Shown: one piece after another, positions 6,336 through 60,208 of the stretch
Position numbering within the stretch: position 1 is the stretch's first letter
Layout of the letters: each line of letters starts with the position of its first letter
DNA from: Candidatus Omnitrophota bacterium
GTDB taxonomy: Bacteria; Omnitrophota; Gorgyraeia; Ghiorseimicrobiales; Ghiorseimicrobiaceae
Reading direction: 5' to 3'
Assembly (NCBI GenBank): GCA_030681595.1
Contig: JAUXSB010000009.1
Coordinates: 24,265 to 88,264 of the forward strand
DNA length: 64,000 nucleotides
Translations under genes and position numbers: made by a program
The notes under the pieces: model-generated
Database searches by the model: none
Told to the model about the DNA's origin: nothing
The model's input: the letters and a program-made list of their open reading frames with translations, nothing else

Positions 6336-6411
6336 TTTAAGTTATAGGTAAGAAGTTATGAGTTATGATTTATAACTTGTAACTCTTAAGCGACTGAAAG
6401 GAGCGAAGCAA

Positions 6412-7314: not shown

Positions 7315-7419
7315 TAATAGCGTTTAGCAAATAGCGCAGAGCGGATAGTTTTTTAAAGGTTTTCTATGCGCTAAACGCTACACGCTACATGCTATACGCT
7401 AAATTGATATGGAGGGTTA

Positions 7420-9851: not shown

Positions 9852-11021
9852 TTGATGAATAAGCTTGCTCAGCGTGTCAAGGATATAGAACCGTCTTCGA
9901 CACTTGCTATAACTGCCCGCGCAAAAAAAATGCGCCAAGAAGGTTTGGATGTAATTAGTTTTGCCGCAGGTGAGCCTGATTTTGACACTCCTCAATATAT
10001 CAAAGACGCCGCTATAAAGGCATTAGCGGAAGGTTTTACTAAGTATACCCCCTCAAGCGGTATCCCCGAATTAAAAAAGGCCATCCAGAAAAAATTTAAG
10101 CTTGATAATAGCCTAGATTATGAACCAGAGCAGATTATCGTTTCTTGCGGGGCAAAACACTCACTTTTTAATATAATTCAAGTTTTGGTAGATAAAAATG
10201 CTGAGGTGCTTATCCCATCGCCTTATTGGGTGAGTTATCTGGAAATGGTTAAGTTTGCCCAAGGCAAAGCTGTAATTCTTAAGACAGACAGTAGAAACTC
10301 TTTTAAGCTTAACGCCGAAATTTTAAGTAAAAACATCACAAAGAAAACCAAGCTGCTTATTTTAAATTCTCCTTCTAATCCTGCAGGCTGTGTATACAAG
10401 AGAGAAGAACTTGATGACATCGCGCAAATATGCGTAAAAAATAAGCTATGGGTGTTAAGCGACGAGATATATGAGAAACTTATTTATGAAAATAATAAGC
10501 ATATTTCTATCGCCACTTTAAATAATGACATATATAAGCTTACCTTTGTAGTAAATGGCGTCTCTAAGGCTTACTCAATGACCGGCTGGCGCATAGGATA
10601 TCTTGCCGGAGATAAAGAGGCAGTAGAGGCAACAGCGAGGCTGCAGGATCACTCTACTTCTAATCCTTGTTCCATATCGCAAAAAGCGGCTTTGGCAGCG
10701 TTGTCTTCCGACAATGGCTTTATTGATAAGATGCGCCTTGAATTTGAGGAAAGGCGTAACCTGATGCTTTCCGAGTTAGATAAAATAGGGTTGGATTATA
10801 TTAAACCAGAAGGTGCGTTTTACGTTTTTCTGGATATTTCAAAGGCTAAGATTGGTTCATGGGAGTTCTGCGATAAATTTTTGGCGGAAAAATATGTTGC
10901 CGTAATCCCGGGTGCGGCATTTGGAAATGATAATTATGTACGTTTTAGTTTCGCGGCCAGTATGCCGGAAATAAAAAAAGGTTTAGAGCGGCTAAGAGAA
11001 TTCATAAGCTCGCCCCGTTAG
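9852..11021 (+). CDS. PLP-dependent aminotransferase class I (aspartate or aromatic aminotransferase-like)
   Basis: 389 aa with the PLP-lysine context SKAYSMTGWRIGY. Typical AspAT fold-type I signature. Confidence 0.85.
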   Translation: MMNKLAQRVKDIEPSSTLAITARAKKMRQEGLDVISFAAGEPDFDTPQYIKDAAIKALAEGFTKYTPSSGIPELKKAIQKKFKLDNSLDYEPEQIIVSCGAKHSLFNIIQVLVDKNAEVLIPSPYWVSYLEMVKFAQGKAVILKTDSRNSFKLNAEILSKNITKKTKLLILNSPSNPAGCVYKREELDDIAQICVKNKLWVLSDEIYEKLIYENNKHISIATLNNDIYKLTFVVNGVSKAYSMTGWRIGYLAGDKEAVEATARLQDHSTSNPCSISQKAALAALSSDNGFIDKMRLEFEERRNLMLSELDKIGLDYIKPEGAFYVFLDISKAKIGSWEFCDKFLAEKYVAVIPGAAFGNDNYVRFSFAASMPEIKKGLERLREFISSPR

Positions 11022-11182: not shown

Positions 11183-12439
11183 ATGGGTAAAACTATTGTT
11201 GAAAAAATTTTAAGCGCCCACTCCGGAAAAGATCTGAAGCCGGGAGATTTTGCTATATGTGATGTAGATTTTTGCTTTGGGCAAGATGGCACTTCCGCGA
11301 TTATCATTGACCGGATTAAAGCGCTGGGCGTAAAAAATCTCGCCAATAAAGATAAATTTTGCATGGTCATAGACCATAGTTCTCCCAGCCCGAATATGGG
11401 GGTTTCCGCTGTCCATAGTAAGATGCGTGCGTTTGCAAAAGAGTTCGGTTTAAAAGTCTATGATATCGGCTGTGGAGTTTGTCATGAGGTGGTCCCGGCA
11501 GAAGGCAATGTCCTGCCCGGGGATTTGGTTTTGGGGGCAGATTCGCATACCTGCACCTATGGCGCAATCGGCGCATTCTCTACCGGCGTCGGATCAACCG
11601 ATTTGGCAGTTGCTTTAGCCAGCGGTAAAAACTGGTTCCGTGTCCCTGAAACGATAAAGATAGAAGTAAATGGAAAATTGCCTAAAGGCGTTTATGCCAA
11701 AGATTTGATTCTTTACATCATCGGCGACTTGGGAGCAAATGGCGCTACTTATAGGGCGGTTGAGTTTTATGGAAGCGCAATAGATAATTTATCTCTTGAC
11801 GGGCGTTTTACAATGAGTAATATGGTAGTAGAAATGGGCGCAAAATGCGCCTTCTTTCCGGTGGATGAAAAAGTTCTAAGCTGGGTAAAAGAAAAGAGCA
11901 TAAAGAGAAAACCCATAATTTATAAAGCAGATTCTAGCGCCGAATATTGCCTGGTTAAGGAATATGATGCCGGAGACATTGCGCCACAGGTGGCAAGGCC
12001 GCATACTGTTGATAATGTAGTTGCGGTAAAAAAGATAGAAGGCCTTAAAATTAACGAAGCATTTTTAGGCACCTGCACCAACGGAAGGCTTGATGATTTG
12101 AAGGTGGCTTGGCGAATTTTAAAGGGAAGAAAAGTTAATCCGAAGATTAAATTCATTATCGCGCCAGCTTCACGCAGGATTTATTTGGAGGCATTAAAAT
12201 TAGGTTTTATAGAAACTTTTATAAAGGCGGAAGCGGTAGTGATTACTCCGGGATGCGGGCCGTGCGTGGGCACCCATATGGGTATTCCCGCAGATAAAGA
12301 AGTAGTGCTTTCAACGGCAAACAGGAATTTTAAGGGCAGGATGGGAAATCCTGAGTCGGAAATCTATCTTGCTTCTCCGGCTACTGTTTGCGCTTCAGCT
12401 GTTAGCGGCAAAATAACCGACCCACGGAAATATTTATAG
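11183..12439 (+). CDS. leuC: 3-isopropylmalate / citramalate dehydratase large subunit (aconitase family, archaeal-type LeuC)
   Basis: 418 aa. Has the aconitase cluster-ligand context (…GTCTNGR…, …PGCGPCVG…). Confidence 0.88.
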   Translation: MGKTIVEKILSAHSGKDLKPGDFAICDVDFCFGQDGTSAIIIDRIKALGVKNLANKDKFCMVIDHSSPSPNMGVSAVHSKMRAFAKEFGLKVYDIGCGVCHEVVPAEGNVLPGDLVLGADSHTCTYGAIGAFSTGVGSTDLAVALASGKNWFRVPETIKIEVNGKLPKGVYAKDLILYIIGDLGANGATYRAVEFYGSAIDNLSLDGRFTMSNMVVEMGAKCAFFPVDEKVLSWVKEKSIKRKPIIYKADSSAEYCLVKEYDAGDIAPQVARPHTVDNVVAVKKIEGLKINEAFLGTCTNGRLDDLKVAWRILKGRKVNPKIKFIIAPASRRIYLEALKLGFIETFIKAEAVVITPGCGPCVGTHMGIPADKEVVLSTANRNFKGRMGNPESEIYLASPATVCASAVSGKITDPRKYL

Positions 12440-18862: not shown

Positions 18863-20141
18863 AAATTTAGAATTATTAGACAAAAAATATATCTGGCATC
18901 CGTTTACGCAGATGTATGATTGGTTAAAAGAAGAACCGTTGATTATCAAAGAAGCCAAGGGTTCTTATTTAAAAGATATAAAAGGCAGGTGGTATTTAGA
19001 CGGTGTATCTTCTTTATGGGTAAATGTCCACGGCCACAGAAAAAAAGAGATTGATAGCGCGATAAAAAAACAACTGAGTAAAGTAGCGCATTCAACATTT
19101 TTTGGGCTAAGCCATAAACCCGCTATTGAATTGGCAGGGCGGCTCGTCAATATTGCTCCCGGAGGGCTTAGTAAAGTATTCTATTCGGATAATGGTTCAA
19201 CTAGCGTCGAGGTAGCCTTAAAAATATGCTTTCAATACTGGCGCCAGAAGGATAAAAAAGAAAAAACAAAATTTATATATTTTAAAAACTCCTATCACGG
19301 CGATACCATCGGTTCAGTTAGTGTTGGAGGTATAGGTTTATTTCATGGATTGTACCGGCCTTTGCTTTTTAAGGGGTATTGCTTGCCGTTTTCTATTGCG
19401 CGTGTAAAAAACGTTCTAGAAAAGCATCACCGGGAGATTGCCGGTTTAATCGTAGAGCCGATGATACAGGGGGCGGCAGGGATGTTGCTTATGCCGAAAG
19501 GATTTTTTAAAAAAATACGCGATTTATGCTTGCGTTATAATGTTTTGTTTATCGCTGATGAGGTTGCAACGGGGTTTGGCAGGACCGGGAAGATGTTTGC
19601 CTGCGAACATGAAGGGGTTAGGCCGGATATCTTATGTTTAGGTAAGGGAATTACCGCTGGATACCTTCCTTTGGCGGCGACATTGACGACAGGCAAAGTT
19701 TATTCTGCATTTTTAGGCGAATATAAAGATAAAAAGGCTTTTTTCCACGGCCACAGTTATACCGCTAATCCCTTAGCCTGTGTTGCGGCGATAGAGAATT
19801 TGAATTTGTTTGAAAGGGAAAAAACGCTTAAAAAATTGCAGCCGAAAATAAGCTTTCTTAAAAAAGAACTTAAAGCGTTTGAGGCGCTTGAACACGTCAA
19901 AGAAGTGCGGCAATTGGGTTTTATGGTAGGGATTGAACTGGTGAAAGATAAAGCCGGAAATGAGCCTTACCTTTGGGAAGAAAAAATCGGTATCCGCGTA
20001 ATAAAGGAAGCGAGAAAAAAAAGGGTTATCCTCAGGCCGCTTGGAAATGTCATAGTGCTTATGCCGCCTTTATCTATAAGCAGTTTTGAGCTAAAATTAC
20101 TTCTTGAAATTACTCGCCAGTCAATCCTGTCGGTAACCTAA
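18855..20141 (+). CDS. bioA: adenosylmethionine-8-amino-7-oxononanoate aminotransferase
   Basis: 428 aa class-III aminotransferase. Confidence 0.9.
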   Translation: MSKNLELLDKKYIWHPFTQMYDWLKEEPLIIKEAKGSYLKDIKGRWYLDGVSSLWVNVHGHRKKEIDSAIKKQLSKVAHSTFFGLSHKPAIELAGRLVNIAPGGLSKVFYSDNGSTSVEVALKICFQYWRQKDKKEKTKFIYFKNSYHGDTIGSVSVGGIGLFHGLYRPLLFKGYCLPFSIARVKNVLEKHHREIAGLIVEPMIQGAAGMLLMPKGFFKKIRDLCLRYNVLFIADEVATGFGRTGKMFACEHEGVRPDILCLGKGITAGYLPLAATLTTGKVYSAFLGEYKDKKAFFHGHSYTANPLACVAAIENLNLFEREKTLKKLQPKISFLKKELKAFEALEHVKEVRQLGFMVGIELVKDKAGNEPYLWEEKIGIRVIKEARKKRVILRPLGNVIVLMPPLSISSFELKLLLEITRQSILSVT

Positions 20142-26171: not shown

Positions 26172-26223
26172 GGATTCTCAATAACCAATGACCAAATCCC
26201 AATTGAAATTGGAAATTGGCTAA

Positions 26224-27339
26224 TTGGAAATTGGGTATTTTAAAACTATGTGGCAGGGGATAATTTCGCAGTATAAAAATTATTTAGATTGTATAAACAA
26301 TAAAACTCCGGTTGTGACGATAAACGAGGGCAATACGCCTTTAGTCTATTCGCATAATCTAAGCAAGTTAATCGGCGCAGAAGTCTATTTAAAATACGAA
26401 GGCTTGAATCCTACCGGTTCATTCAAGGATAGGGGCATGACCGTTGCCATATCTAAGGCAAAAGAGGATAAATCAAAGGCAGTAATTTGCGCCTCGACGG
26501 GGAATACCTCCGCGTCAGCGTCTGCGTATGCGGCAAAGGCGGGATTAAAGTCTATTGTGCTGGTGCCGGAAGGCGCAATTGCCCTAGGAAAGCTTTCGCA
26601 GGCCTTAATTCACGGCGCGATAGTATTACAGGTTAAGGGTAATTTTGACGATGCTTTGAATATGGTAAGAGAAATCAGTTCGAAATATCCTATAACATTA
26701 GTTAATTCAATTAACCCTTACCGCCTTGAGGGGCAGAAAACCGGTGCCTTTGAGATATGCGATTGTTTGGGGGGAGCGCCTGATTTTCAGGTAATGCCTG
26801 TGGGCAATGCCGGCAATATCACAGCTTATTGGAAGGGGTATAAAGAATACAGGGAAAAAGGAAAGATAAAAGTTCTTCCGAAAATGCTGGGTTTTCAAGC
26901 AGCGGGTGCGGCTCCTATCGTAAAAGGGCATATCATTAGGAAACCAAAGACAATTGCGACGGCTATCCGTATCGGCAACCCTGCCAGCTGGAGGAGGGCC
27001 CAAGAGGCGCGGGATGAGTCCGGCGGCTTAATCGACATGGTAAGCGACAAAGAGATTCTTTCGGCGTATAAATTTTTAGCGCAGAAAGAAGGAGTTTTTG
27101 TTGAACCGGCATCCGCGGCATCCGTTGCCGGTTTATTTAAATTAGTTAAAAAAGGATACTTTTCCCGCATACGACCCAAGCCATCGCTTGGGTGCCCCGA
27201 CGCAGGACGCACAACGCGAATAGTTTGCATCCTTACCGGCCATGGATTAAAGGATCCCGATATGGTGCTGGCAACAATAAAAAAACCAAAGGTAATAAAG
27301 GCCGATATAAAAGCGGTATTAAAAGAAATTGGATATTAA
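26224..27339 (+). CDS. thrC: threonine synthase
   Basis: PLP lysine in PTGSFKDRG. The start could instead be the Met at 26248. Confidence 0.9.
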   Translation: MEIGYFKTMWQGIISQYKNYLDCINNKTPVVTINEGNTPLVYSHNLSKLIGAEVYLKYEGLNPTGSFKDRGMTVAISKAKEDKSKAVICASTGNTSASASAYAAKAGLKSIVLVPEGAIALGKLSQALIHGAIVLQVKGNFDDALNMVREISSKYPITLVNSINPYRLEGQKTGAFEICDCLGGAPDFQVMPVGNAGNITAYWKGYKEYREKGKIKVLPKMLGFQAAGAAPIVKGHIIRKPKTIATAIRIGNPASWRRAQEARDESGGLIDMVSDKEILSAYKFLAQKEGVFVEPASAASVAGLFKLVKKGYFSRIRPKPSLGCPDAGRTTRIVCILTGHGLKDPDMVLATIKKPKVIKADIKAVLKEIGY

Positions 27340-32132: not shown

Positions 32133-34940
32133 ATGAACGAAATTCCCTCCCGATATAACCCCAAAGAAGTTGAAGAGAAATGGTATAAGTTTTGGGAAGA
32201 AAATAAGCTATTTTCCGCAAAGCCCACTCCTAATAAGAAACCTTTCTGTATAGTCATACCTCCGCCTAATGTGACCGGAATTTTACACATGGGGCATGCC
32301 TTGAATAATTTCATACAGGATATTTTAACCCGTTACCAGCGAATGAAAGGTAGTGAGGCGCTCTGGATACCTGGGACAGACCATGCCGGGATTGCCACGC
32401 AGAACGTGGTGGAGAAGAAATTGGCTAAAGAAGGTAAAAAACGGCAGGACTTAGGGCGCGATGAATTTTTAAAGGAAGTCTGGAAATGGCGCGAGGAATA
32501 CGGTTCAACTATTATCAAGCAGCTTAAGAAATTAGGCGCATCCTGTGATTGGGAGCGTACTCGTTTTACTATGGATGAGGGCTACAGTGATGCAGTGCTG
32601 GAAGTATTTATTCATTTATATAATAAAGGCCTCATTTATCGGGGAAAGCGTATTATTAATTGGTGCCCGCGTTGTTCAACCGCGCTTAGCGATGAAGAAG
32701 CTCCTTATAAGGAATTGGAAGGGCAGCTTTATTATATACGGTATCCAATTAAAGTCACCAGTCATACCCTTGCGGGCACAGGCCAGTCATACCCTTGCGG
32801 GCACAGGCCAGTCACCAGAAAAAAACAGAAAACTATCAATTACGTAGTAGTGGCGACGACGCGGCCGGAGACGATGTTGGGCGATACGGCGGTAGCGGTT
32901 AATCCCAAAGACAAGCGCTATAAAGACCTGATAGGAAAGACTGTTATTCTTCCTTTGGTTGAGCGGGAAATTAAAATTATCGCTGATAATTTTGTTGATC
33001 CGAAATTCGGTACAGGCGCGGTTAAGGTTACCCCTGCCCATGATCCTAACGATTACCAGATGGGGCTGCGGCATAATCTAGAGTTTATTAATATTATGCA
33101 GGTCGATGGTGTGTTGAATTCTAATGCCGGCGAATACGATGGTATGGATAGGTTTGAGGCACGCCAGGCAATAGTTAACGATTTAAAAGAGCGTAAGCTG
33201 CTGGAGAAAATAGAACCGCATATGCATTCCGTAGGGCATTGCTATCGTTGTTCAACCGTAATTGAGCCATATTTGTCCAACCAGTGGTTTGTGAAAATGA
33301 AGCCTTTATCCAAACTCGCGTTGGAAGCGGTGAAAAAAGGCGAAATTAAATTTTATCCTAAGCGTTGGACAAAGGTTTATTTAAACTGGATGGAAAATAT
33401 TCAGGATTGGTGTATCTCGCGGCAGATTTGGTGGGGGCATAGGATGCCTGTTTATTATTGTAAAAATTGCTACAAGCCTCAAGCTTCAGGCTCCAAGCTT
33501 CAAACTGAAAAAGAAAAGCCTGCAGCAGATAAGGGTATCTTTGTTTCAAAGAATAAGCCGGAGAAATGCCCGGATTGCGGCTCAAGCGATATTTATCAAG
33601 ACGAAGATGTGTTGGATACTTGGTTTTCTTCCTGGCTCTGGCCGTTTGCGACGTTTGGCTGGCCGTTTACAAGCTACAAGCCTCAAGCTGCAAGCGACAA
33701 GCAAAAAAGCCTGCAGCAGGACGAACTTAATTACTTCTACCCTACTTCGGTATTAGTGACTGCTCAGGAAATAATCTTTTTCTGGGTGGCGCGCATGATT
33801 ATGGCGGGCTTTGAATTTATGGGTAAAAAGCCGTTTTCCGATGTTTATATCCATGGTACGGTGCGCGACGATACCGGTAAAAAGATGTCTAAGTCTCTGG
33901 GTAATATTATTGACCCGCTTGAAATTATAAATGAGTTTGGATCAGACGCGCTTCGTTTCAGTATTATTTCCCTGACCAGCGTAGGCCAGGATGTCTTTTT
34001 ATCTAGGAATAAATTTGAATACGGCAGGAATTTCGCCAATAAAGTCTGGAATGCCTCGCGCTATACCATAATGAACCTTAAGCCAGAAGAAATAAATGTG
34101 GATTTGTGCGCCTATTCTAAAGGTATATCCGGGCTTGCCGAGAAGTGGATTTTAAGCCGGTTTTACAGCGCTTTAGATAGAATAGAGAAGGCGCTTAAGC
34201 AGTATAAAATTAACGAGGCGGCTAAGGTAATGTATGAATTTTTCTGGCATAATTTCTGTGATTGGTACCTGGAATTTTCTAAGTTAACATTGGGGAGGCG
34301 CCAAACGCAGGTTGTGCTTTATAAGGTATTGGAAAAATCCCTGCGTGTTATGCATCCGTTCTTGCCGCATCTGACCGAAGAAATATGGCATAACCTGCCG
34401 GGTACAAAATCGTCCATAATGACGGAAAGCTGGCCGCATTTGCAGAAACAGTTTATCTCAAAAACAACGGATAAACAGATGCAGGTTTTGATAGATTTAA
34501 TTTCCCTGATAAGGAATATCCGTTCTGAATGGCACATATTGGAACACGCTGAAATAGAATGTATTATTAAGACTACAGATAAGGCTTCAAAAAAACTCAT
34601 ACAGGAAAACGATATTTATCTAAAAAAATTAGCAAAGCTAGGCCAGATAAAAATCGTAGAGAAAGCCGAAGATGTTTCCATGTGCGCATCCGGCGTGGCA
34701 GGAAAACTCGATTTTTATATACCACTTGAAAAACTTATTGATTTGACAAAAGAAAAAGAGCGCCTGTCTAAACAAATACAGTCATTTGAGGCGCAGTTTA
34801 AGGCTTTGAGAGAAAGATTAAAGAATAAGGAATTTCTTAAAAAAGCGCCCAACGAAGTGGTGGAAAAAGAAAAAATCAGGTTAGAAGAGTTATCGAAATT
34901 AATCAAGCGTATTGGCGATAATTTAAAAGTATTGGGTTAA
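32133..34940 (+). CDS. valS: valine--tRNA ligase, carrying in-frame repeat insertions
   Basis: 935 aa. HIGH (PPNVTGILHMGHA), KMSKS, editing domain, and a C-terminal coiled coil. Confidence 0.93.
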   Translation: MNEIPSRYNPKEVEEKWYKFWEENKLFSAKPTPNKKPFCIVIPPPNVTGILHMGHALNNFIQDILTRYQRMKGSEALWIPGTDHAGIATQNVVEKKLAKEGKKRQDLGRDEFLKEVWKWREEYGSTIIKQLKKLGASCDWERTRFTMDEGYSDAVLEVFIHLYNKGLIYRGKRIINWCPRCSTALSDEEAPYKELEGQLYYIRYPIKVTSHTLAGTGQSYPCGHRPVTRKKQKTINYVVVATTRPETMLGDTAVAVNPKDKRYKDLIGKTVILPLVEREIKIIADNFVDPKFGTGAVKVTPAHDPNDYQMGLRHNLEFINIMQVDGVLNSNAGEYDGMDRFEARQAIVNDLKERKLLEKIEPHMHSVGHCYRCSTVIEPYLSNQWFVKMKPLSKLALEAVKKGEIKFYPKRWTKVYLNWMENIQDWCISRQIWWGHRMPVYYCKNCYKPQASGSKLQTEKEKPAADKGIFVSKNKPEKCPDCGSSDIYQDEDVLDTWFSSWLWPFATFGWPFTSYKPQAASDKQKSLQQDELNYFYPTSVLVTAQEIIFFWVARMIMAGFEFMGKKPFSDVYIHGTVRDDTGKKMSKSLGNIIDPLEIINEFGSDALRFSIISLTSVGQDVFLSRNKFEYGRNFANKVWNASRYTIMNLKPEEINVDLCAYSKGISGLAEKWILSRFYSALDRIEKALKQYKINEAAKVMYEFFWHNFCDWYLEFSKLTLGRRQTQVVLYKVLEKSLRVMHPFLPHLTEEIWHNLPGTKSSIMTESWPHLQKQFISKTTDKQMQVLIDLISLIRNIRSEWHILEHAEIECIIKTTDKASKKLIQENDIYLKKLAKLGQIKIVEKAEDVSMCASGVAGKLDFYIPLEKLIDLTKEKERLSKQIQSFEAQFKALRERLKNKEFLKKAPNEVVEKEKIRLEELSKLIKRIGDNLKVLG
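32755..32818 (+). repeat. in-frame repeat insertion A: 25-bp unit tcatacccttgcgggcacaggccag in tandem x2, flanked by tcaccag direct repeats
   Basis: Read directly. The two copies are translated in different frames (SHTLAGTGQ, then SYPCGHRPV). Net insert 57 bp. The same unit recurs in nadC. Confidence 0.85.
33468..33533 (+). repeat. in-frame repeat insertion B copy 1 (heptamer-based: five NNCAAGC units plus aaaagcctgcagcag)
   Basis: ctacaagcctcaagct…aagcctgcagcag recurs 200 bp downstream. It sits between the two Cys pairs of the valS zinc knuckle. Confidence 0.7.
33668..33725 (+). repeat. in-frame repeat insertion B copy 2
   Basis: acaagc tacaagc ctcaagc tgcaagc gacaagc aaaaaagcctgcagcagg. 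The 3' block is read in a different frame from copy 1. Confidence 0.7.
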
Positions 34941-34943
34941 ATT

Positions 34944-35843
34944 ATGCAGAAAAAAGAAATTATCAATATCGTAAAAAATGCCCTTAGGGAAGATGCCGCG
35001 GATAGAGATATTACTACGCAGGCGCTTATTCCTCTGGATTTAAGGGCAGCGGCAAGGATTATTACCAAAGAAAATGGGGTAGTTTGCGGATTAAGCATTG
35101 CGGAACTCGCCTTTAAGCTGTTGGATAAAAATATCAAGTTTAAGGCAAAAGTCAAAGATGGTGCGGTAATAAAAAATGGTAGTTGTTTGGCAGAGATTTA
35201 CGGTAGGGCACGGCCAATTTTATCTGCAGAACGTACCGCACTCAATTTCTTAGGGAATCTTTGTGGAATAGCCGCGTTTACCCGTCAATTCGTAGAAAAA
35301 GTTAAACCGTATAAAACTAAGATTCTGGATACCAGAAAAACTACGCCGAATTTAAGAATACTGGAAAAATACGCGGTGCGTTGCGGCGGCGGGTTCAACT
35401 ACCGTTTTGATTTAAGCGAACAAATATTGGTTAAAGATAACCACATAAGAATCACAAATGACAAATTACAAATGGCAAATTTAAAATATGTCGTTGAGGC
35501 CGTACGAAAAAACGTGAAGGGTAAAAAAATTGAGATTGAGGTAGATAATTTAAGGCAGTTCAAAGAAGTAATTGCTGTGGCGCCCGATATTATCATGCTG
35601 GATAATTTTAATCTGTCTGATATCAAAAAAGCGGTAAAGATTAAAAATCGGTCACCAGTCATACCCTTGCGGGCACAGGCCAGCCACCGGTCGCCGGTAA
35701 AACTAGAAGCATCTGGTGGAATAACTTTAAGAAATATTAAGAAAGTTGCTGCAACCGGCGTAGATTTTATCTCTATCGGCGCGCTCACCCATTCAGTTAA
35801 ATCCTTGGATTTATCTTTAGAAATCACTAAAAAATCTGCGTAA
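34944..35843 (+). CDS. nadC: nicotinate-nucleotide pyrophosphorylase (carboxylating), carrying an in-frame repeat insertion
   Basis: 299 aa QPRTase. The usual C-terminal …LEASGGI motif is interrupted by the insert. Confidence 0.88.
   Translation: MQKKEIINIVKNALREDAADRDITTQALIPLDLRAAARIITKENGVVCGLSIAELAFKLLDKNIKFKAKVKDGAVIKNGSCLAEIYGRARPILSAERTALNFLGNLCGIAAFTRQFVEKVKPYKTKILDTRKTTPNLRILEKYAVRCGGGFNYRFDLSEQILVKDNHIRITNDKLQMANLKYVVEAVRKNVKGKKIEIEVDNLRQFKEVIAVAPDIIMLDNFNLSDIKKAVKIKNRSPVIPLRAQASHRSPVKLEASGGITLRNIKKVAATGVDFISIGALTHSVKSLDLSLEITKKSA
35651..35690 (+). repeat. in-frame insertion of repeat A (single 25-bp unit, flanks tcaccag / ccaccgg) in nadC
   Basis: Identical 25-mer to the valS copies, translated in the third possible frame (VIPLRAQAS). 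Net ~39 bp. Confidence 0.85.
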
Positions 35844-40175: not shown

Positions 40176-40251
40176 AGTTGGTTAGTTGGTTAGTTGGTTA
40201 GTTGGTTAGGTTTAACGAACCAACAAACTATCAAACTAACAAACTAAAACC
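40176..40251. repeat. (agttggtt)x4-5 tandem octamer followed by its inverted complement, between groES and groEL
   Basis: Read directly. Forms a long AT-rich hairpin. No spacers, so not CRISPR. Confidence 0.8.
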
Positions 40252-44822: not shown

Positions 44823-44903
44823 AAGTTATAAGTGGTGAGTTATGAGTTATAAATTTAAAAAAGTAACTTAAACTTGTAACTTATAATTTATAACTCATAA
44901 CTT
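44823..44903. repeat. ~80-bp AT-rich near-perfect palindrome (gagttatgagttataaatt … aatttataactcataactt)
   Basis: 19-bp arms with nested inner arms. The same agttatgagttat / ataacttgtaact motif occurs at 6353-6387. Confidence 0.8.
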
Positions 44904-48879: not shown

Positions 48880-50181
48880 ATGTCATTTGTTTTTCGGGCT
48901 GTGCGCGGAACGAAAGATATTTTGCCTGATGAGGCAGAATATTTGCGCCATATTGAAGTTAAGGCGCGGGAGATTTCTTCTCTTTATGGATATAGAGAGG
49001 TTATTACTCCTGTGATAGAAAACCGCGATTTATTCGTCCGTTCCCTGGGAAAGGACACGGAGGTTATCGGAAAGCAGATGTTTATCATCGAGCGGGGAGA
49101 TGATATTATCGCCCTGCGTCCCGAAGCAACTGCCGGAGTAATCCGCGCTTATTTGGAAAATAATTTAAATAGCCGCAACTTGTTAGCCAAGTTTTATTAT
49201 TTCGGGCCGATGTTCAGGGCGGAACGTCCGCAAAAAGGGCGCCTGCGGCAGTTTCACCATCTGGGGGTTGAAGCAGTAGGTTCATCCAGCCCCTTGTTAG
49301 ATGTGGAAATTATTTCTTTGGCAGAGGTAATCTTAAAAAATATCGGCATAAGCGGTTTTAAAATAAAAATCAATACTTTGGGGTGTGTCGAAGATAAAAA
49401 AGCATTTGCTGAAAAGCTGCGCGTTATTTTAGGGGGGAAAATTTCTGATTTTTGCCAGGATTGCCGGGAAAGGTTTGATCGTAATGTCTTTCGGCTCCTT
49501 GACTGTAAAAACAGCTCCTGTAAAAATATTATCTTAGGCCTTAATATTAAGCGTACGGATTATCTTTGCGGGGAATGTTTAGAACATTTTGATACGGTTT
49601 TAGCTGGATTAAAGAATATAGGCGTAAACTATGAAGAGAGCGCGCATTTAGTGCGGGGCTTAGATTATTATACGCGCACGGTTTTTGAGATTACGCATTC
49701 AGAATTAGGCGCTCAGGATGCCGTAGGTGCCGGAGGGAGATACGATAATTTGGTGGAGGAGTTGGGCGGAGAGCCGACGGCTGCCATAGGTTTTGCTTTT
49801 GGAGTCGAGAGGCTGTTGTTAGTATCAAGTGCCAAGTGCCAAGTGCCAAGTAAAGATTTAGTTTTTTTGATTGCTTTAGGCAAGGGGGCGGAGGCAGCGA
49901 GCGTTAAGCTGTTGTATAGCCTGCGCCAAAACGGGATAAAGGCAGATACGCTTTATGAAGAGAAATCTCTTAAAGGGGCAATGCGTAGAGCTAATGATTT
50001 AGGCGCAAAATATGTTTTGATTTTAGGCGAAAACGAGTTAAAGAAAAACGTGGTAGTTTTTAAGGATATGGCTTCGGGGGAGCAAAGAGAGATAAAGACA
50101 GAAGAAGTAATAGCCGAACTTATGGCTTTGGCTATATTGAAAGCCAAACCATTGCCTTATCGGCTTAAAGGTCAAATATAG
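48880..50181 (+). CDS. hisS: histidine--tRNA ligase
   Basis: 433 aa class-II aaRS with a HisRS anticodon-binding C-terminus. Contains a (caagtgc)x3 tract (49827-49853) and a repeat-derived 3' end. Confidence 0.92.
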   Translation: MSFVFRAVRGTKDILPDEAEYLRHIEVKAREISSLYGYREVITPVIENRDLFVRSLGKDTEVIGKQMFIIERGDDIIALRPEATAGVIRAYLENNLNSRNLLAKFYYFGPMFRAERPQKGRLRQFHHLGVEAVGSSSPLLDVEIISLAEVILKNIGISGFKIKINTLGCVEDKKAFAEKLRVILGGKISDFCQDCRERFDRNVFRLLDCKNSSCKNIILGLNIKRTDYLCGECLEHFDTVLAGLKNIGVNYEESAHLVRGLDYYTRTVFEITHSELGAQDAVGAGGRYDNLVEELGGEPTAAIGFAFGVERLLLVSSAKCQVPSKDLVFLIALGKGAEAASVKLLYSLRQNGIKADTLYEEKSLKGAMRRANDLGAKYVLILGENELKKNVVVFKDMASGEQREIKTEEVIAELMALAILKAKPLPYRLKGQI

Positions 50182-54901: not shown

Positions 54902-54968
54902 CGGTTAGTGTTTAGCGGATAGAACCGGCATTTTCTACACGCTATACGCTATACGCTGTACGCTAACG

Positions 54969-57440: not shown

Positions 57441-59147
57441 ATGTTAAACAAGCAAATTGCAGAAATTTTTAGGAAGACCGCGCAAATTCTGGAAATAAAA
57501 GGCGATAACCCTTTTAAAATCCGCGCCTATCAGCGCGCCGCCGATAGTTTAGAGAATGTTAACGAAGATTTAGAAGATATTGAGCGCCAGGGCCGCCTTT
57601 GCCAAATCCCCGGCATAGGCCATGATTTAGCGCAGATGATTAGCGAATTTATCGGCTATGGCGCGATTAAGTCCTATGACGAACTAAAGCAAACTATTCC
57701 AGAGGGGTTACTCGAACTTTTATCCATTCCCGGGGTCGGCCCGAAAACCGCCAAACTGCTTTATGATCAATTAAAGATTTCAGATATTCAGACGTTAGAA
57801 AAATACGCCAAAGAAGGCAGGCTGCAGGCACTTCCGGGATTTAAGGTAAAGCATGAAGAAAATATCCTACGCGGGATAGAGCTGGTTAAGAAGGGGATGG
57901 AACGGATGGACTTAGGCACTGCCTATCGTAGCGCGCAGAAATTTGTCGGTATCTTAAACAAACATCCTGCGGTAAAACGGATAGAAGCAGGCGGAAGTTT
58001 ACGCCGGATGAAAGAGACAGTGCGCGATATTGATATTTTAGTTGCTTCAAATAAACCCAGAGAAATAATGGATGATTTTGTAAAAATTAAGGAAGTAAAA
58101 AGCGTTTTAGGCCAAGGCCCGACCAAATCTTCAGTGGTGACTAAAGAGGGGGTGCAGGTTGATTTACGCGTTGTGGATGAAAAAAGTTTTGGCTCAGCCC
58201 TAATGTACTTTACCGGCTCAAAGGCGCATAATATACGTTTAAGGCAAGTAGCAATTAAAAAGGGTTTAAAATTAAGTGAATACGGTGTATTCAAAAAAGA
58301 AAAAAATATCGCCGCCGGCTTTTCTGAAAAAGAAATTTATAGATTACTGGGCATGCCTTATATTGAGCCGGAATTAAGGGAAGATTCCGGAGAAATAGAG
58401 GCGGCAGCCAAGCAAAAATTACCGGATTTGATAAAATTAGAAGATATTAAGGGCGACTTGCATATGCATTCGACCTATTCCGACGGTAATTATTCTATGG
58501 AAGATATGGCGCTGGCGGCAGAGAAAAAAGGTTATGAATATATAGCATTTACCGACCATTCCATATCGCTTAAAGTAGCAAACGGGTTAGATTTGCACGC
58601 ACTTGCGAAAAAACGCGCGGAAATCGAGAAATTAAACAAGGAACTAAAAATTAAAATTTTATTCGGTACAGAGGTGGAATTGGATGCCGACGGCAAGACC
58701 GATTACTCCGATAAAGTGCTTTCTGAATTTGATATTGTAATCGGTGCAATTCATTCGGGATTCCGGCAGTCAAAACAAAGAGTCACCAAGCGTTTGATCA
58801 AGGCCTGCCTTAATAGGCATATTGATATGATCGCTCATCCGACAGGCCGGCTATGGACGGTACGCGAGGCATACGAGGTGGATTTTACGGCATTTTTTAA
58901 GGCGGCAGGCGACACCGGGACATTCCTGGAAATAAGCTCATTCCCTACGCGCCTGGACTTAAATGATGTCAATGCCCGCCGGGCAAAGGAGGCTGGGGTG
59001 GGGCTTGCGATTTCCACGGATTCGCATCATATTGAGCAGTTGGATTATGTAAAGTTCGGCGTAGCTACCGCGCGCCGCGCCTGGCTTACTAAAAAAGATG
59101 TAGTAAATACGTTGTCGTTAAAAGAATTGATGAAGGTGAAGAAGTGA
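57441..59147 (+). CDS. DNA polymerase X family with a C-terminal PHP phosphoesterase domain
   Basis: Pol beta-like HhH, fingers/palm (GSLRRMKETVRDIDILV) and a PHP domain (HMHSTYSDG). Confidence 0.88.
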   Translation: MLNKQIAEIFRKTAQILEIKGDNPFKIRAYQRAADSLENVNEDLEDIERQGRLCQIPGIGHDLAQMISEFIGYGAIKSYDELKQTIPEGLLELLSIPGVGPKTAKLLYDQLKISDIQTLEKYAKEGRLQALPGFKVKHEENILRGIELVKKGMERMDLGTAYRSAQKFVGILNKHPAVKRIEAGGSLRRMKETVRDIDILVASNKPREIMDDFVKIKEVKSVLGQGPTKSSVVTKEGVQVDLRVVDEKSFGSALMYFTGSKAHNIRLRQVAIKKGLKLSEYGVFKKEKNIAAGFSEKEIYRLLGMPYIEPELREDSGEIEAAAKQKLPDLIKLEDIKGDLHMHSTYSDGNYSMEDMALAAEKKGYEYIAFTDHSISLKVANGLDLHALAKKRAEIEKLNKELKIKILFGTEVELDADGKTDYSDKVLSEFDIVIGAIHSGFRQSKQRVTKRLIKACLNRHIDMIAHPTGRLWTVREAYEVDFTAFFKAAGDTGTFLEISSFPTRLDLNDVNARRAKEAGVGLAISTDSHHIEQLDYVKFGVATARRAWLTKKDVVNTLSLKELMKVKK

Positions 59148-60136
59148 TGGGAAAATATTTTAAAGAAGGGAGAAGAGAGAAGGGAGAAGGGCGAAAGATT
59201 TTTTATTTTTTTCTATCTTCTATTCTCTATCTTCTATTTTTCGGATTTTACGGCTGTGCCGTAAAGCCCTATCATAGCCAGACACGCTTGATAATGGGCA
59301 CCGTGATGGAGATAGTTGCTCAGGATGAGAAAGCGATTGAAGCGGCATTTAAGGAAATCGAGCATATTGACGATTTAATGAGCAATTATAAGCCGGAAAG
59401 CGAAATTTCGCGCCTGAATAAAGACGGCCAGGTTAAAGCATCGCCTGAGACATTGGCGGTAGTGAAAGCGTCAAAAAAGCTTTTCCGGTTTAGCGAAGGG
59501 GCTTTTGACATAACCGTAGGGCCGTTAATAAAATTATGGAATGTTAAGGGGAATATGCAAAAAGATGCTTCTTTAATAAGGATACCCGGGGAGGGAAAAA
59601 TAAAAGAAGCATTATCTTGCGTGGGAACAAATTTTATTGATATAGACGAAAAAAACAGTATAATACGGTTAAAGAAGAAAAGCGTTATTTTAGATTTAGG
59701 GGCAATTGCTGCCGGTTACGCTGTGGATAGGGCAATCGCCGTATTAAAACAAAACGGCGTAAGAAATGCTTTGGTTAATGCCGGCGGCGAAATATATTGT
59801 TTAGGAAAAAAGGGTTTTTCCTACTGGAAAGTAGGTTTGCAAAATCCGCGTAAAAAGGATGGCGTAGCAGATATAGTTAAGCTGCGGAATAGGGCGGTAG
59901 CGACTTCTGGCGACTACGAGCAGTTTTTTGTATATGAAAACAAGCGCTACGCGCATATAATTGACCCGCGTACCGGATATCCGGTAGATAACGGTATAAT
60001 CTCGGTAAGTGTTTTTGCCGATGATTGCACAACCGCCGACGCTTTAGGCACAGCGATTTTCGTTTTAGGAAAAGAAAAAGGCGAGCAGTTAGCAAAGCGG
60101 TTTAAGAACGTGGAAGTAAAGATAATTACAAAATAA
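59144..60136 (+). CDS. apbE: FAD:protein FMN transferase (ApbE family) lipoprotein
   Basis: ApbE motifs (DITVGPLIKLW, ATSGDYEQ…HIIDPRTG). N-terminal TM/lipobox GC. Confidence 0.85.
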   Translation: MMGKYFKEGRREKGEGRKIFYFFLSSILYLLFFGFYGCAVKPYHSQTRLIMGTVMEIVAQDEKAIEAAFKEIEHIDDLMSNYKPESEISRLNKDGQVKASPETLAVVKASKKLFRFSEGAFDITVGPLIKLWNVKGNMQKDASLIRIPGEGKIKEALSCVGTNFIDIDEKNSIIRLKKKSVILDLGAIAAGYAVDRAIAVLKQNGVRNALVNAGGEIYCLGKKGFSYWKVGLQNPRKKDGVADIVKLRNRAVATSGDYEQFFVYENKRYAHIIDPRTGYPVDNGIISVSVFADDCTTADALGTAIFVLGKEKGEQLAKRFKNVEVKIITK

Positions 60137-60208
60137 TCCATAGCGTAAAAGTCAAAACGTAAAACGCAAAACCAAAATTAAAAATTAGCCAATGGTAAAA
60201 AATTTACA

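Follow-up and report, generated by a model that had tools for sequence, protein, structure and literature searches.

The valyl-tRNA synthetase (ValRS) gene valS in a stretch of Candidatus Omnitrophota DNA raises the question of how two copies of a short repeat, built from units of seven nucleotides, came to lie in frame in two separate loops of one essential enzyme. We analysed 64,000 nt of contig JAUXSB010000009.1 (assembly GCA_030681595.1, positions 24,265 to 88,264), hereafter the window, together with comparison loci (handles beginning with L) and ValRS proteins (handles beginning with P). The valS open reading frame (ORF) contains both repeat copies. Its product was 100% identical to a deposited Candidatus Omnitrophota protein from a metagenome-assembled genome (MAG) and matched the Thermus thermophilus ValRS (1GAX) with a phmmer E-value of 1e-218.

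Both copies, which a first-pass annotation made from the letters alone had placed at 33468-33533 and 33668-33725, were recovered by exact matching. The 17-nt head block GCTACAAGCCTCAAGCT occurred at 33469-33485 and 33673-33689, and the 15-nt tail block AAAAGCCTGCAGCAG at 33514-33528 and 33705-33719, with the same block order in both copies. No further copy of either block was found in the 64-kb window. The search of the window for the array motif proposed at that stage placed eight of nine CAAGCNNCAAGC matches (≤1 mismatch) within the two valS tracts, and the observed number of near-matches to a 16-mer was reached in none of 100 shuffles. Each copy had been described as carrying five NNCAAGC heptamers. 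This holds for copy 2, which has five exact units reported by Tandem Repeats Finder (TRF) as (TACAAGC)x5 (period 7, 5.0 copies, 33668-33702), and only in part for copy 1, in which three units are exact and two are degenerate (TTCAGGC and TTCAAAC). Head and tail are spaced 45 nt apart in copy 1 and 32 nt in copy 2, and because these spacings differ by 13 the tail is translated in different frames, as had been noted: the head reads YKPQA in both copies, and the tail reads KPAAD in copy 1 and SLQQD in copy 2. Copy 1 occupies site B (site 1), and copy 2 occupies site C (site 2), 204 bp downstream. Predicted peptides of the inserts include YKPQASGSK and SLQQDELNYFYPTSVLVTAQEIIFFWVAR. The features of the two sites are as follows:

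32133-34940, + strand: valS, valine-tRNA ligase, 935 aa
33471-33533, + strand: site B insertion, aa 447-467, YKPQASGSKLQTEKEKPAADK, directly after C443-x2-C446
33471-33505, + strand: left arm of copy 1, five heptamers (TACAAGC CTCAAGC TTCAGGC TCCAAGC TTCAAAC)
33514-33528, + strand: tail of copy 1, AAAAGCCTGCAGCAG, comprising the end of the A-rich spacer and one remaining right-arm unit
33666-33719, + strand: site C insertion, aa 512-529, FTSYKPQAASDKQKSLQQ, between GWP and (D/E)LxYFYPTS
33668-33702, + strand: heptamer array of copy 2, (NNCAAGC)x5, detected by TRF
33705-33719, + strand: tail of copy 2, AAAAGCCTGCAGCAG, in a frame different from that of the copy 1 tail

The loops that hold the copies are normally short in bacteria, in agreement with the earlier annotation. 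Both loop segments were obtained from 56 ValRS loci, of which 55 were compared after L002 was dropped as a duplicate of L001. The first segment (WWGHxxPxxY to DEDVLDTWFSS) had a median length of 27 aa (range 27-34) in 14 non-Omnitrophota ValRS, and the second (TWFSS to FYPTS) was constant at 19 aa; the same segments measured 47 and 34 aa in the window ValRS. The in-frame gain over baseline was thus about 20 aa at site B and about 15 aa at site C, and the alignment with 1GAX was gapped at both. The site B insert lies between C443-x2-C446 and C479-x2-C482, the two halves of the second zinc knuckle, and the site C insert between GWP (509-511) and LNYFYPTS, again as first described. The four zinc-knuckle cysteines were invariant in 80 homologues. 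An AlphaFold model based on the alignment of these 80 homologues had a mean predicted local distance difference test (pLDDT) score of 83; values below 50 were confined to residues 187-194, 210-233 (in a third insertion, site A) and 450-464 (site B), and residues 511-520 (site C) scored about 61. The site B insert is predicted to be a disordered loop, and the C-terminal part of the site C insert is modelled as a helix.

In one respect the annotation has to be revised: the sites are not peculiar to this gene and are hot spots throughout the clade. Among 120 Omnitrophota ValRS (60-85% identity, 872-1002 aa), three sites were hypervariable in both length and sequence (site A, aa 208-236; site B, aa 447-468; site C, aa 509-531), with near-invariant flanks. 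Identity between residues seven positions apart was 14.7%, 19.9% and 16.1% for the inserts at sites A, B and C, respectively, compared to about 6-7% for shuffled inserts and 7.0% for the protein core. Because 3 x 7 nt equals seven codons, this seven-residue periodicity is the footprint of heptamer DNA at the protein level. The reading frame was open in all 56 ValRS loci matched by flanking motifs. Conserved lineage-specific ValRS peptides free of repeats in their DNA, which would have argued against an origin from repeats, were looked for; instead, the inserts of relatives differed in sequence and nearly all had heptamer repeats at the nucleotide level, in support of the initial description of the segments as repeat-derived in-frame insertions.

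The number of occupied sites in valS is three (A, B and C) rather than the four insertions counted before. The third is the following:

32754-32814, + strand: valS site A insertion, aa 208-236, TCACCAG heptamer array

The repeat at site A had been called unrelated to the copies at sites B and C, which is doubtful. Its 25-nt perfect tandem (32758-32814) consists of two units of TCA + TACCCTTGCGGGCACAGG + CCAG, that is, of a TCA/CCAG heptamer split by the 18-nt core TACCCTTGCGGGCACAGG, and it is nested inside a TCACCAG-type array. As the tandem is a split heptamer in a heptamer array, both valS repeats belong to one heptamer-array phenomenon.

Many of the inserts in relatives are hairpins with one heptamer array per arm, and others are single arrays or short GC-rich hairpins with a TTCG loop. 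The element at site C of L006 is (CCAAGCT)5 AAAA (AGCCTGN)4, the one at site B of L049 is (ACAGTCC)n ... (TATGGAC)n, and sites A, B and C of L005 all hold (ATATCGC)n ... (GATAAGC)n elements. Alignment of six sequences (window B and C, L001 B, L004 B, L006 B and C) revealed one common architecture: five NNCAAGC units, an A-rich spacer, (GCCTGNA)n and a terminal GCAG or GCAA. A seventh aligned sequence, the N1 array in the nadC gene of L001, holds only five NNCAAGC units and an A-rich run, without a right arm. Two further kinds of insert were observed. GC-rich TTCG-loop hairpins, e.g., GGGTCAGTCCCCTTCGGGGACAGACCC, were present at sites B/C of L012, L019, L023 and L024; this element translates as GQSPSGTDP or GLSPKGTVP and may occupy both sites of one protein. 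L011 has (GTCGTTA)n at valS site A and in an intergenic region, and the complement (TAACGAC)n at site B and at a further valS site (array positions 10616-10645, 11320-11350, 12250-12281 and 19301-19334).

Comparison of the closest relatives showed that, in this clade, the elements held by different loops of one genome become homogenised and change at a much higher rate than the remainder of the protein. Core identity groups the window with L003 (91%) and L001 with L004 (93%), with about 83% identity between the pairs, and the distribution of elements is incongruent with this tree. At site B, the elements of the window, L001 and L004 are orthologous, with four CCTGCAG-type units in L001 and L004 and one in the window; the difference is a clean 21-nt gap, equal to three units or seven codons. 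L003, the closest relative, carries at site B an AAATCCG-type element resembling that at its own site A and that at site B of the more distant L007; sites A and B of L003 thus carry one family. Site C holds three unrelated elements, one in the window, one in L003 and one in the pair of L001 and L004, whose members differ by 21 nt. Other steps of 21 nt or 7 aa were seen in L004 at nadC N1 and between P0044 and P0079 (99.4% identity), which differ by a single 7-aa indel. Complete replacement of the insert was common in ValRS pairs with at least 88% core identity, and some close relatives have no insert (P0013 vs. P0009, and L006 at site A). We also considered a remnant of the L001-type array at site C of the window (GACGAAC vs. 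CACGAAC), which was rejected as the match lies on the conserved D/E-L-x-Y codons.

Evidence for copying within genomes was of several kinds. Different loops of one genome held elements that were more alike than those of a given loop in different genomes. Sharing of peptide 3-mers between sites was about four times higher within proteins than between proteins, and an exact string of at least 12 nt was shared by sites B and C in five of 17 genomes, compared to 1.4% of between-genome pairs. The order of variant units at sites B and C of L005 is nearly the same, with one right-arm unit different (GATTGGC vs. GATTAGC), and site A holds the same family; such near-identity of order points to the copying of whole elements and not to independent expansion. 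Copy 2 of the window matches copy 1 in a TAC codon (TAT in L001 and L004) and in the one-unit right arm, which suggests recent copying or homogenisation within this genome.

The composition of the inserts bears the mark of translation. T makes up 17% of the sense strand of the inserts and 27% of that of the gene; coding copies that are T-poor on this strand therefore encode few hydrophobic residues (17.8% in the inserts vs. 36.6% in ValRS; the reverse complement of the inserts would give 45.6%). Residues K, S, Q, P and E are favoured. Each base of a heptamer visits every codon position, so that a T anywhere in the unit gives a hydrophobic codon or possibly a stop. A filter acting on translation thus accounts for the strand asymmetry and also for the A.C mismatches of the sense arms. 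The strictly kept frame in 56 loci and the composition bias together argue that the segments are translated rather than removed from the message.

Taken together, we consider it probable that the inserts are tolerated, translated, hydrophilic loops made of heptamer-array hairpin DNA, which spread by slippage and by intragenomic copying, likely through template switching, under a filter for frame and hydrophilicity. The two copies would be members of a single family of very small repeats, which form an imperfect hairpin in their fuller versions, an element being about five NNCAAGC heptamers, an A-rich spacer and (GCCTGNA)n ending in GCAG. They would sit in two permissive surface loops of ValRS and have nothing specific to do with catalysis. 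Arrays gain and lose units of 7 nt, which slippage would account for, and the only changes seen inside genes are those of 21 nt (seven codons). The site B copy would be the older one, since L001 and L004 share the site B element, and site C would have been recently overwritten or homogenised in this genome, with site B or some other member of the family as the source. The copying would most likely have gone through template switching or microhomology-mediated gene conversion at arrays that are stalled and prone to form hairpins, and selection would then retain only in-frame, hydrophilic versions.

Several points weigh against this explanation. The hairpin nature of the window copies rests on relatives, as most of the right arm is lost in both. 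The neutrality of the loops is something that we infer from their hypervariability. As 64 kb of the genome are visible, copy 2 could have been donated by a third copy that lies outside them. In L006 (65% core identity) both sites hold the family, and the AAAAA spacer at site C is likewise short; the window copies might therefore both date from long ago, with repeated conversion preserving their likeness. Nothing in the flanks, whether homology or a target-site duplication, accounts for the replacement of one family by another. Lastly, a given site holds the same families again in distant lineages, a recurrence that slippage and template switching explain poorly and that hints at a more specific process.

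The arrays extend beyond valS to other genes of the window, filling a few recurrent loops of NadC and HisRS as they do of ValRS:

35450-35487, + strand: nadC N1, (NNCAAAT)x5, in frame, encoding ITNDKLQMANLK
35647-35690, + strand: nadC N2, in-frame array of TCACCAG/CCACCGG/TCGCCGG units with one nested 25-nt unit
49826-49851, + strand: perfect in-frame array (CAAGTGC)x3.7 in hisS, detected by TRF

The nadC N1 array shares the layout of the valS (NNCAAGC)x5 arrays, with two variable positions followed by five constant ones, and in L001 this site holds (CAAGCCN)x5, i.e., the valS family itself. The 18-nt core TACCCTTGCGGGCACAGG was present at three places in the window (two in valS site A and one in nadC N2) and absent from the 86 comparison loci that were searched. 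In L004, the nadC N1 array carries a nested 21-nt perfect palindrome, CCTGCCTGTCCGGCAGGCAGG, and at N2 the base array is that of the window but the insert nested in it is another one. The array in hisS (gene at 48880-50181) translates to SSAKCQVPSK, a stretch of the linker that joins the class II core to the anticodon-binding domain.

Arrays of period 7 are in excess across the window. TRF detected 16 non-redundant ones, about nine times the 1.85 expected (maximum of five in 40 third-order Markov shuffles), and periods 8-12 were near or below expectation. The units vary between arrays and include AGTTATG, CGCTACA, AATTGGA, AACCAGA, AATGACA, CAAGTGC, CTATACG and AGAAGGG, among others. The majority of the window arrays are found between genes, at 4-40 nt ahead of a start codon, and several are inverted pairs that fold into hairpins (44824-44903, 59164-59237 and an octamer pair at 40176-40247). 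A greedy caller gave 61 ORFs of at least 80 aa, every one of them on the + strand, and a coding density of about 91%. Relatives L001 and L003-L006 had 3.5-7.5 period-7 arrays per 10 kb, and L010 had 9; among 50 Omnitrophota loci (GTDB), the excess was present in only a subset, and many loci had none. Loop length correlated with local heptamer density with rho of 0.31 and 0.45 for the two ValRS loops.

Six of the intergenic arrays overlap the expected ribosome-binding region of the gene downstream: 6339-6384 (rpsM), 7369-7401 (rpsD), 26201-26234 (PALP enzyme), 44824-44903 (dnaE), 54935-54965 (recO) and 60144-60172 (dihydroorotate dehydrogenase B-type protein). The groES-groEL spacer (40176-40247) holds inverted octamer arrays, (AGTTGGTT)x4.2 and (TAACAAAC)x4.4, with a folding energy of -35.6 kcal/mol on the + strand. 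The (AGAAGGG)x4.6 / (TTCTATC)x3.9 hairpin at 59164-59237 lies between a gene for a PolX-type DNA polymerase (57441-59147; Pol beta thumb and PHP) and apbE. The long apbE ORF begins upstream of this hairpin, and its Pfam match starts only at residue 51, so the true apbE start is probably downstream of the hairpin. The highest array densities that we saw were in two outgroup loci from Atribacterota/Caldatribacteriota, L071 and L076 (10.3 and 4.5 per 10 kb); their arrays were all intergenic, and the ValRS loops of both loci were at the 27-aa and 19-aa baseline.

We scanned a metagenome collection for two NNCAAGC units followed by AAGCCTGCAGC within 3-33 nt. This returned 76 stretches, about half of them true heptamer arrays, including intergenic hairpins and in-frame insertions. 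The NNCAAGC...GCCTGCAGC family was found in frame in genes for MetRS (L093, L140 and L150), PurL (L138) and a histidine kinase (L128), two of which have the following positions:

8039-10336 of L150: MetRS
461-3397 of L138: PurL

The MetRS has a second linker, PATGNQQ, which is 7-aa-periodic and shows a 6-7-aa indel among members of its 90% cluster that are at least 92% identical to the query.

The recurrence of families across genes, sites and distant lineages is what could be expected of ultra-small, non-autonomous hairpin elements that are moved by a dedicated enzyme and prefer arrays or hairpins already present, also within genes, as insertion sites. Candidates for such an enzyme would be an HUH nuclease of the REP/RAYT (repetitive extragenic palindrome/REP-associated tyrosine transposase) type, acting on single-stranded hairpins, or the mover of cyanobacterial small dispersed repeats. 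Also in favour of mobility are the copying of whole composite elements with the order of variant units nearly kept (L005), the small elements nested in arrays (the 18-nt core, three times in the window, and the 21-nt palindrome in nadC N1 of L004), the replacement of elements without flanking homology, and the presence or absence of the heptamer excess among Omnitrophota, as expected of an activity that is gained and lost. However, no candidate enzyme was identified among the 10 of 61 window ORFs that were scanned, which were all housekeeping genes with no transposase among them. The elements are without target-site duplications or conserved termini, their units are so diverse within one genome that a sequence-specific enzyme would hardly recognise them, and changes in 7-nt steps are typical of slippage. 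We regard enzymatic mobility as unlikely, although it is the strongest of the alternatives. Equally tentative is the broader proposal of an undescribed system, active in a subset of Omnitrophota and possibly in other phyla, that writes heptamer-array hairpins of <100 nt into array sites. If it were real, its pre-existing target sites would include the ValRS, HisRS and NadC loops of the window and those of MetRS and PurL in other contigs, and loops would evolve in concert within a genome and be replaced wholesale between near relatives. In that case the elements would make up a new class of mobile DNA, ultra-small and served by enzymes of its own, instead of arising by passive slippage.

The inserts could also be functional, lineage-specific extensions of ValRS, for tRNA or partner binding or for localisation, with selection on the protein and an incidental DNA repeat. 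Their persistence across a large clade, with the frame always kept and a bias towards K, S, Q, P and E, would fit such a role. It is nevertheless very unlikely, as the inserts vary in sequence and length even at about 90% core identity, are missing from the close relatives named above, are modelled with low confidence or as disordered, and consist of elements that also occur in intergenic DNA and in unrelated proteins.

Somewhat less credible still is that the two copies arose independently, by slippage of similar seeds and convergence under shared constraints (no stops and hydrophilic in all frames). These constraints do restrict the units that can be used, and NNCAAGC-type arrays occur in many unrelated metagenome contigs. 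Such convergence would nonetheless have to produce blocks of 17 and 15 nt without a mismatch, arranged alike in both copies, together with the non-repetitive junction of spacer and tail and the one-unit right arm, when between-genome pairs of sites B and C reach 12 nt in only 1.4% of cases.

A role at the RNA level, in which the segments form a regulatory or pausing hairpin in the valS message or are excised from the mRNA with translation being irrelevant, draws on the stable hairpins that related intergenic arrays form near start codons and on the fuller family members in L001 and L006, which are strong hairpins. Many of the inserts in relatives had z-scores of -4 or lower against shuffles, and the site C element of L006 reached -49 kcal/mol on the antisense strand. 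The window copies, however, folded no better than shuffles as sense RNA (z of -0.17 and -0.03; antisense, -2.3 for copy 1 and -0.3 for copy 2). Coding sequence held 59 of the 101 array regions of the heptamer-rich loci, and the antisense RNA folded better in 21 of 25 hairpin-like coding arrays, opposite to the bias of random window segments. Avoidance of T at the protein level is the simpler explanation of this asymmetry, to which selection against mRNA hairpins may add. With the strict frame and the hydrophilic codon bias showing translation, we give an RNA-level role hardly any credence. No known structured RNA family was recognised, as no Rfam covariance model matched at the gathering threshold in the 64-kb window or at E-values up to 1 in 33300-33900. 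Selection at the RNA level had also been considered for the intergenic hairpins, in which the sense strand folds better, and was rejected: random 85-mers of the window were equally biased (mean of -2.8 kcal/mol) as a result of their excess of G over C.

Misassembly of the MAG by repeat-induced joining can be set aside almost completely: this exact valS sequence is known from one contig only, but its frame is intact across both copies, other samples, assembled independently, also have the site B element (L001/L002 and L004), typical assembly k-mers are longer than repeats of 15-17 nt, and about 120 independent ValRS sequences show the phenomenon again. Intein, intron, diversity-generating retroelement, CRISPR and TIGR-array readings were rejected as well, given that no matching proteins or periodicities were found and the segments are translated. 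A phase-variable contingency locus was likewise rejected, with hosts that are essential (valS, hisS and nadC), a frame that is always kept and changes of 21 nt only.

We thus retain tolerated heptamer-array loops, spread by slippage and intragenomic copying, as the preferred explanation. The over-representation of heptanucleotides in some bacteria has been known since 2007. As the flanks of the inserts are near-invariant sequence of an essential gene, the gain, loss and replacement of elements can be aligned to the base, which makes these loci a natural experiment. They show that DNA with a 7-nt period can persist inside essential genes when changes come as 21-nt steps. If a dedicated copying mechanism exists, comparing heptamer-rich with heptamer-poor Omnitrophota could identify it. 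In practical terms, the hypervariable loops inflate divergence in aminoacyl-tRNA synthetase alignments and could serve as strain-level markers for groundwater Omnitrophota.

We found no prior description of any of four features, namely a hairpin-of-arrays architecture, recurrence at fixed aminoacyl-tRNA synthetase loops, homogenisation within genomes and rapid replacement between near relatives, and repeats are not mentioned in the main Omnitrophota survey. Related systems are known from other bacteria. The short tandemly repeated repetitive (STRR) sequences of cyanobacteria, reportedly described by Mazel in 1990, are heptamers. According to later articles that relate the work (PMC4679880, PMC4692102), Mrazek, Guo and Shah (2007) reported that long simple-sequence repeats (LSSRs) of heptanucleotides are over-represented in prokaryotes and proposed that slippage of the polymerase in a 7-nt register gave rise to them. 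The arrays described here share with LSSRs and STRRs at least three head-to-tail 7-nt units, a lineage-specific excess that is confined to period 7, a mostly intergenic location and whole-unit changes in copy number between relatives. They differ in forming inverted, hairpin-forming pairs, in having many units per genome, in being exchanged between sites and in lying in frame within essential genes, although seven is not a multiple of three.

Geobacter metallireducens has 49 elements with four GGACCGG heptanucleotide repeats each, within and between genes (Aklujkar 2009, PMC2700814). These are dispersed tandem heptanucleotides as in the window, but with a single GC-rich unit and an interpretation as regulatory RNA; their description mentions neither hairpin arms nor turnover of sites nor any effect on protein loops. 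TAACTGA direct repeats in Beggiatoaceae, Cyanobacteria and Bacteroidetes are concentrated just upstream of start codons (MacGregor 2015, PMC4679880). That system has one favoured unit and avoids coding sequence because the unit contains stop codons, whereas the valS family unit is stop-free. Similar TAACTNA units are present in the window at 44864-44903 and, on the complementary strand, at 6354-6373. Coding palindromes in the mitochondrial genes of Nematomorpha (Mikhailov 2019, PMC6649704) are long and perfect and have both arms encoding conserved protein, in contrast to the arms described here, which encode non-conserved loops. REP elements and bacterial interspersed mosaic elements are extragenic, and both copies in the window are inside valS.

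Cyanobacterial small dispersed repeats, according to what Elhai is said to have reported in 2008, measure 21-27 nt and are nested in other repeats, including tandem heptamers. The 25-nt unit of valS site A and nadC N2 is likewise nested in a heptamer array; it belongs to another phylum, has no sequence similarity to those repeats and, in contrast to them, has a coding, frame-keeping 18-nt core. Rickettsia palindromic elements (RPEs) are said, after Ogata in 2000 and Claverie and Ogata in 2003, to be selfish repeats inserted in frame in conserved genes and tolerated as hydrophilic surface loops. The valS copies resemble them in being in-frame insertions into a conserved gene at loops that are short in homologues. 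RPEs have a length of 100-150 nt, a conserved consensus, no heptamer periodicity and a site of their own each, and are vertically stable. No such 100-150-nt consensus was seen here: what is conserved is the architecture and 5-nt cores, with many unrelated units per genome, and the elements measure 40-90 nt, are built from arrays, recur at the same few loops and are quickly replaced.

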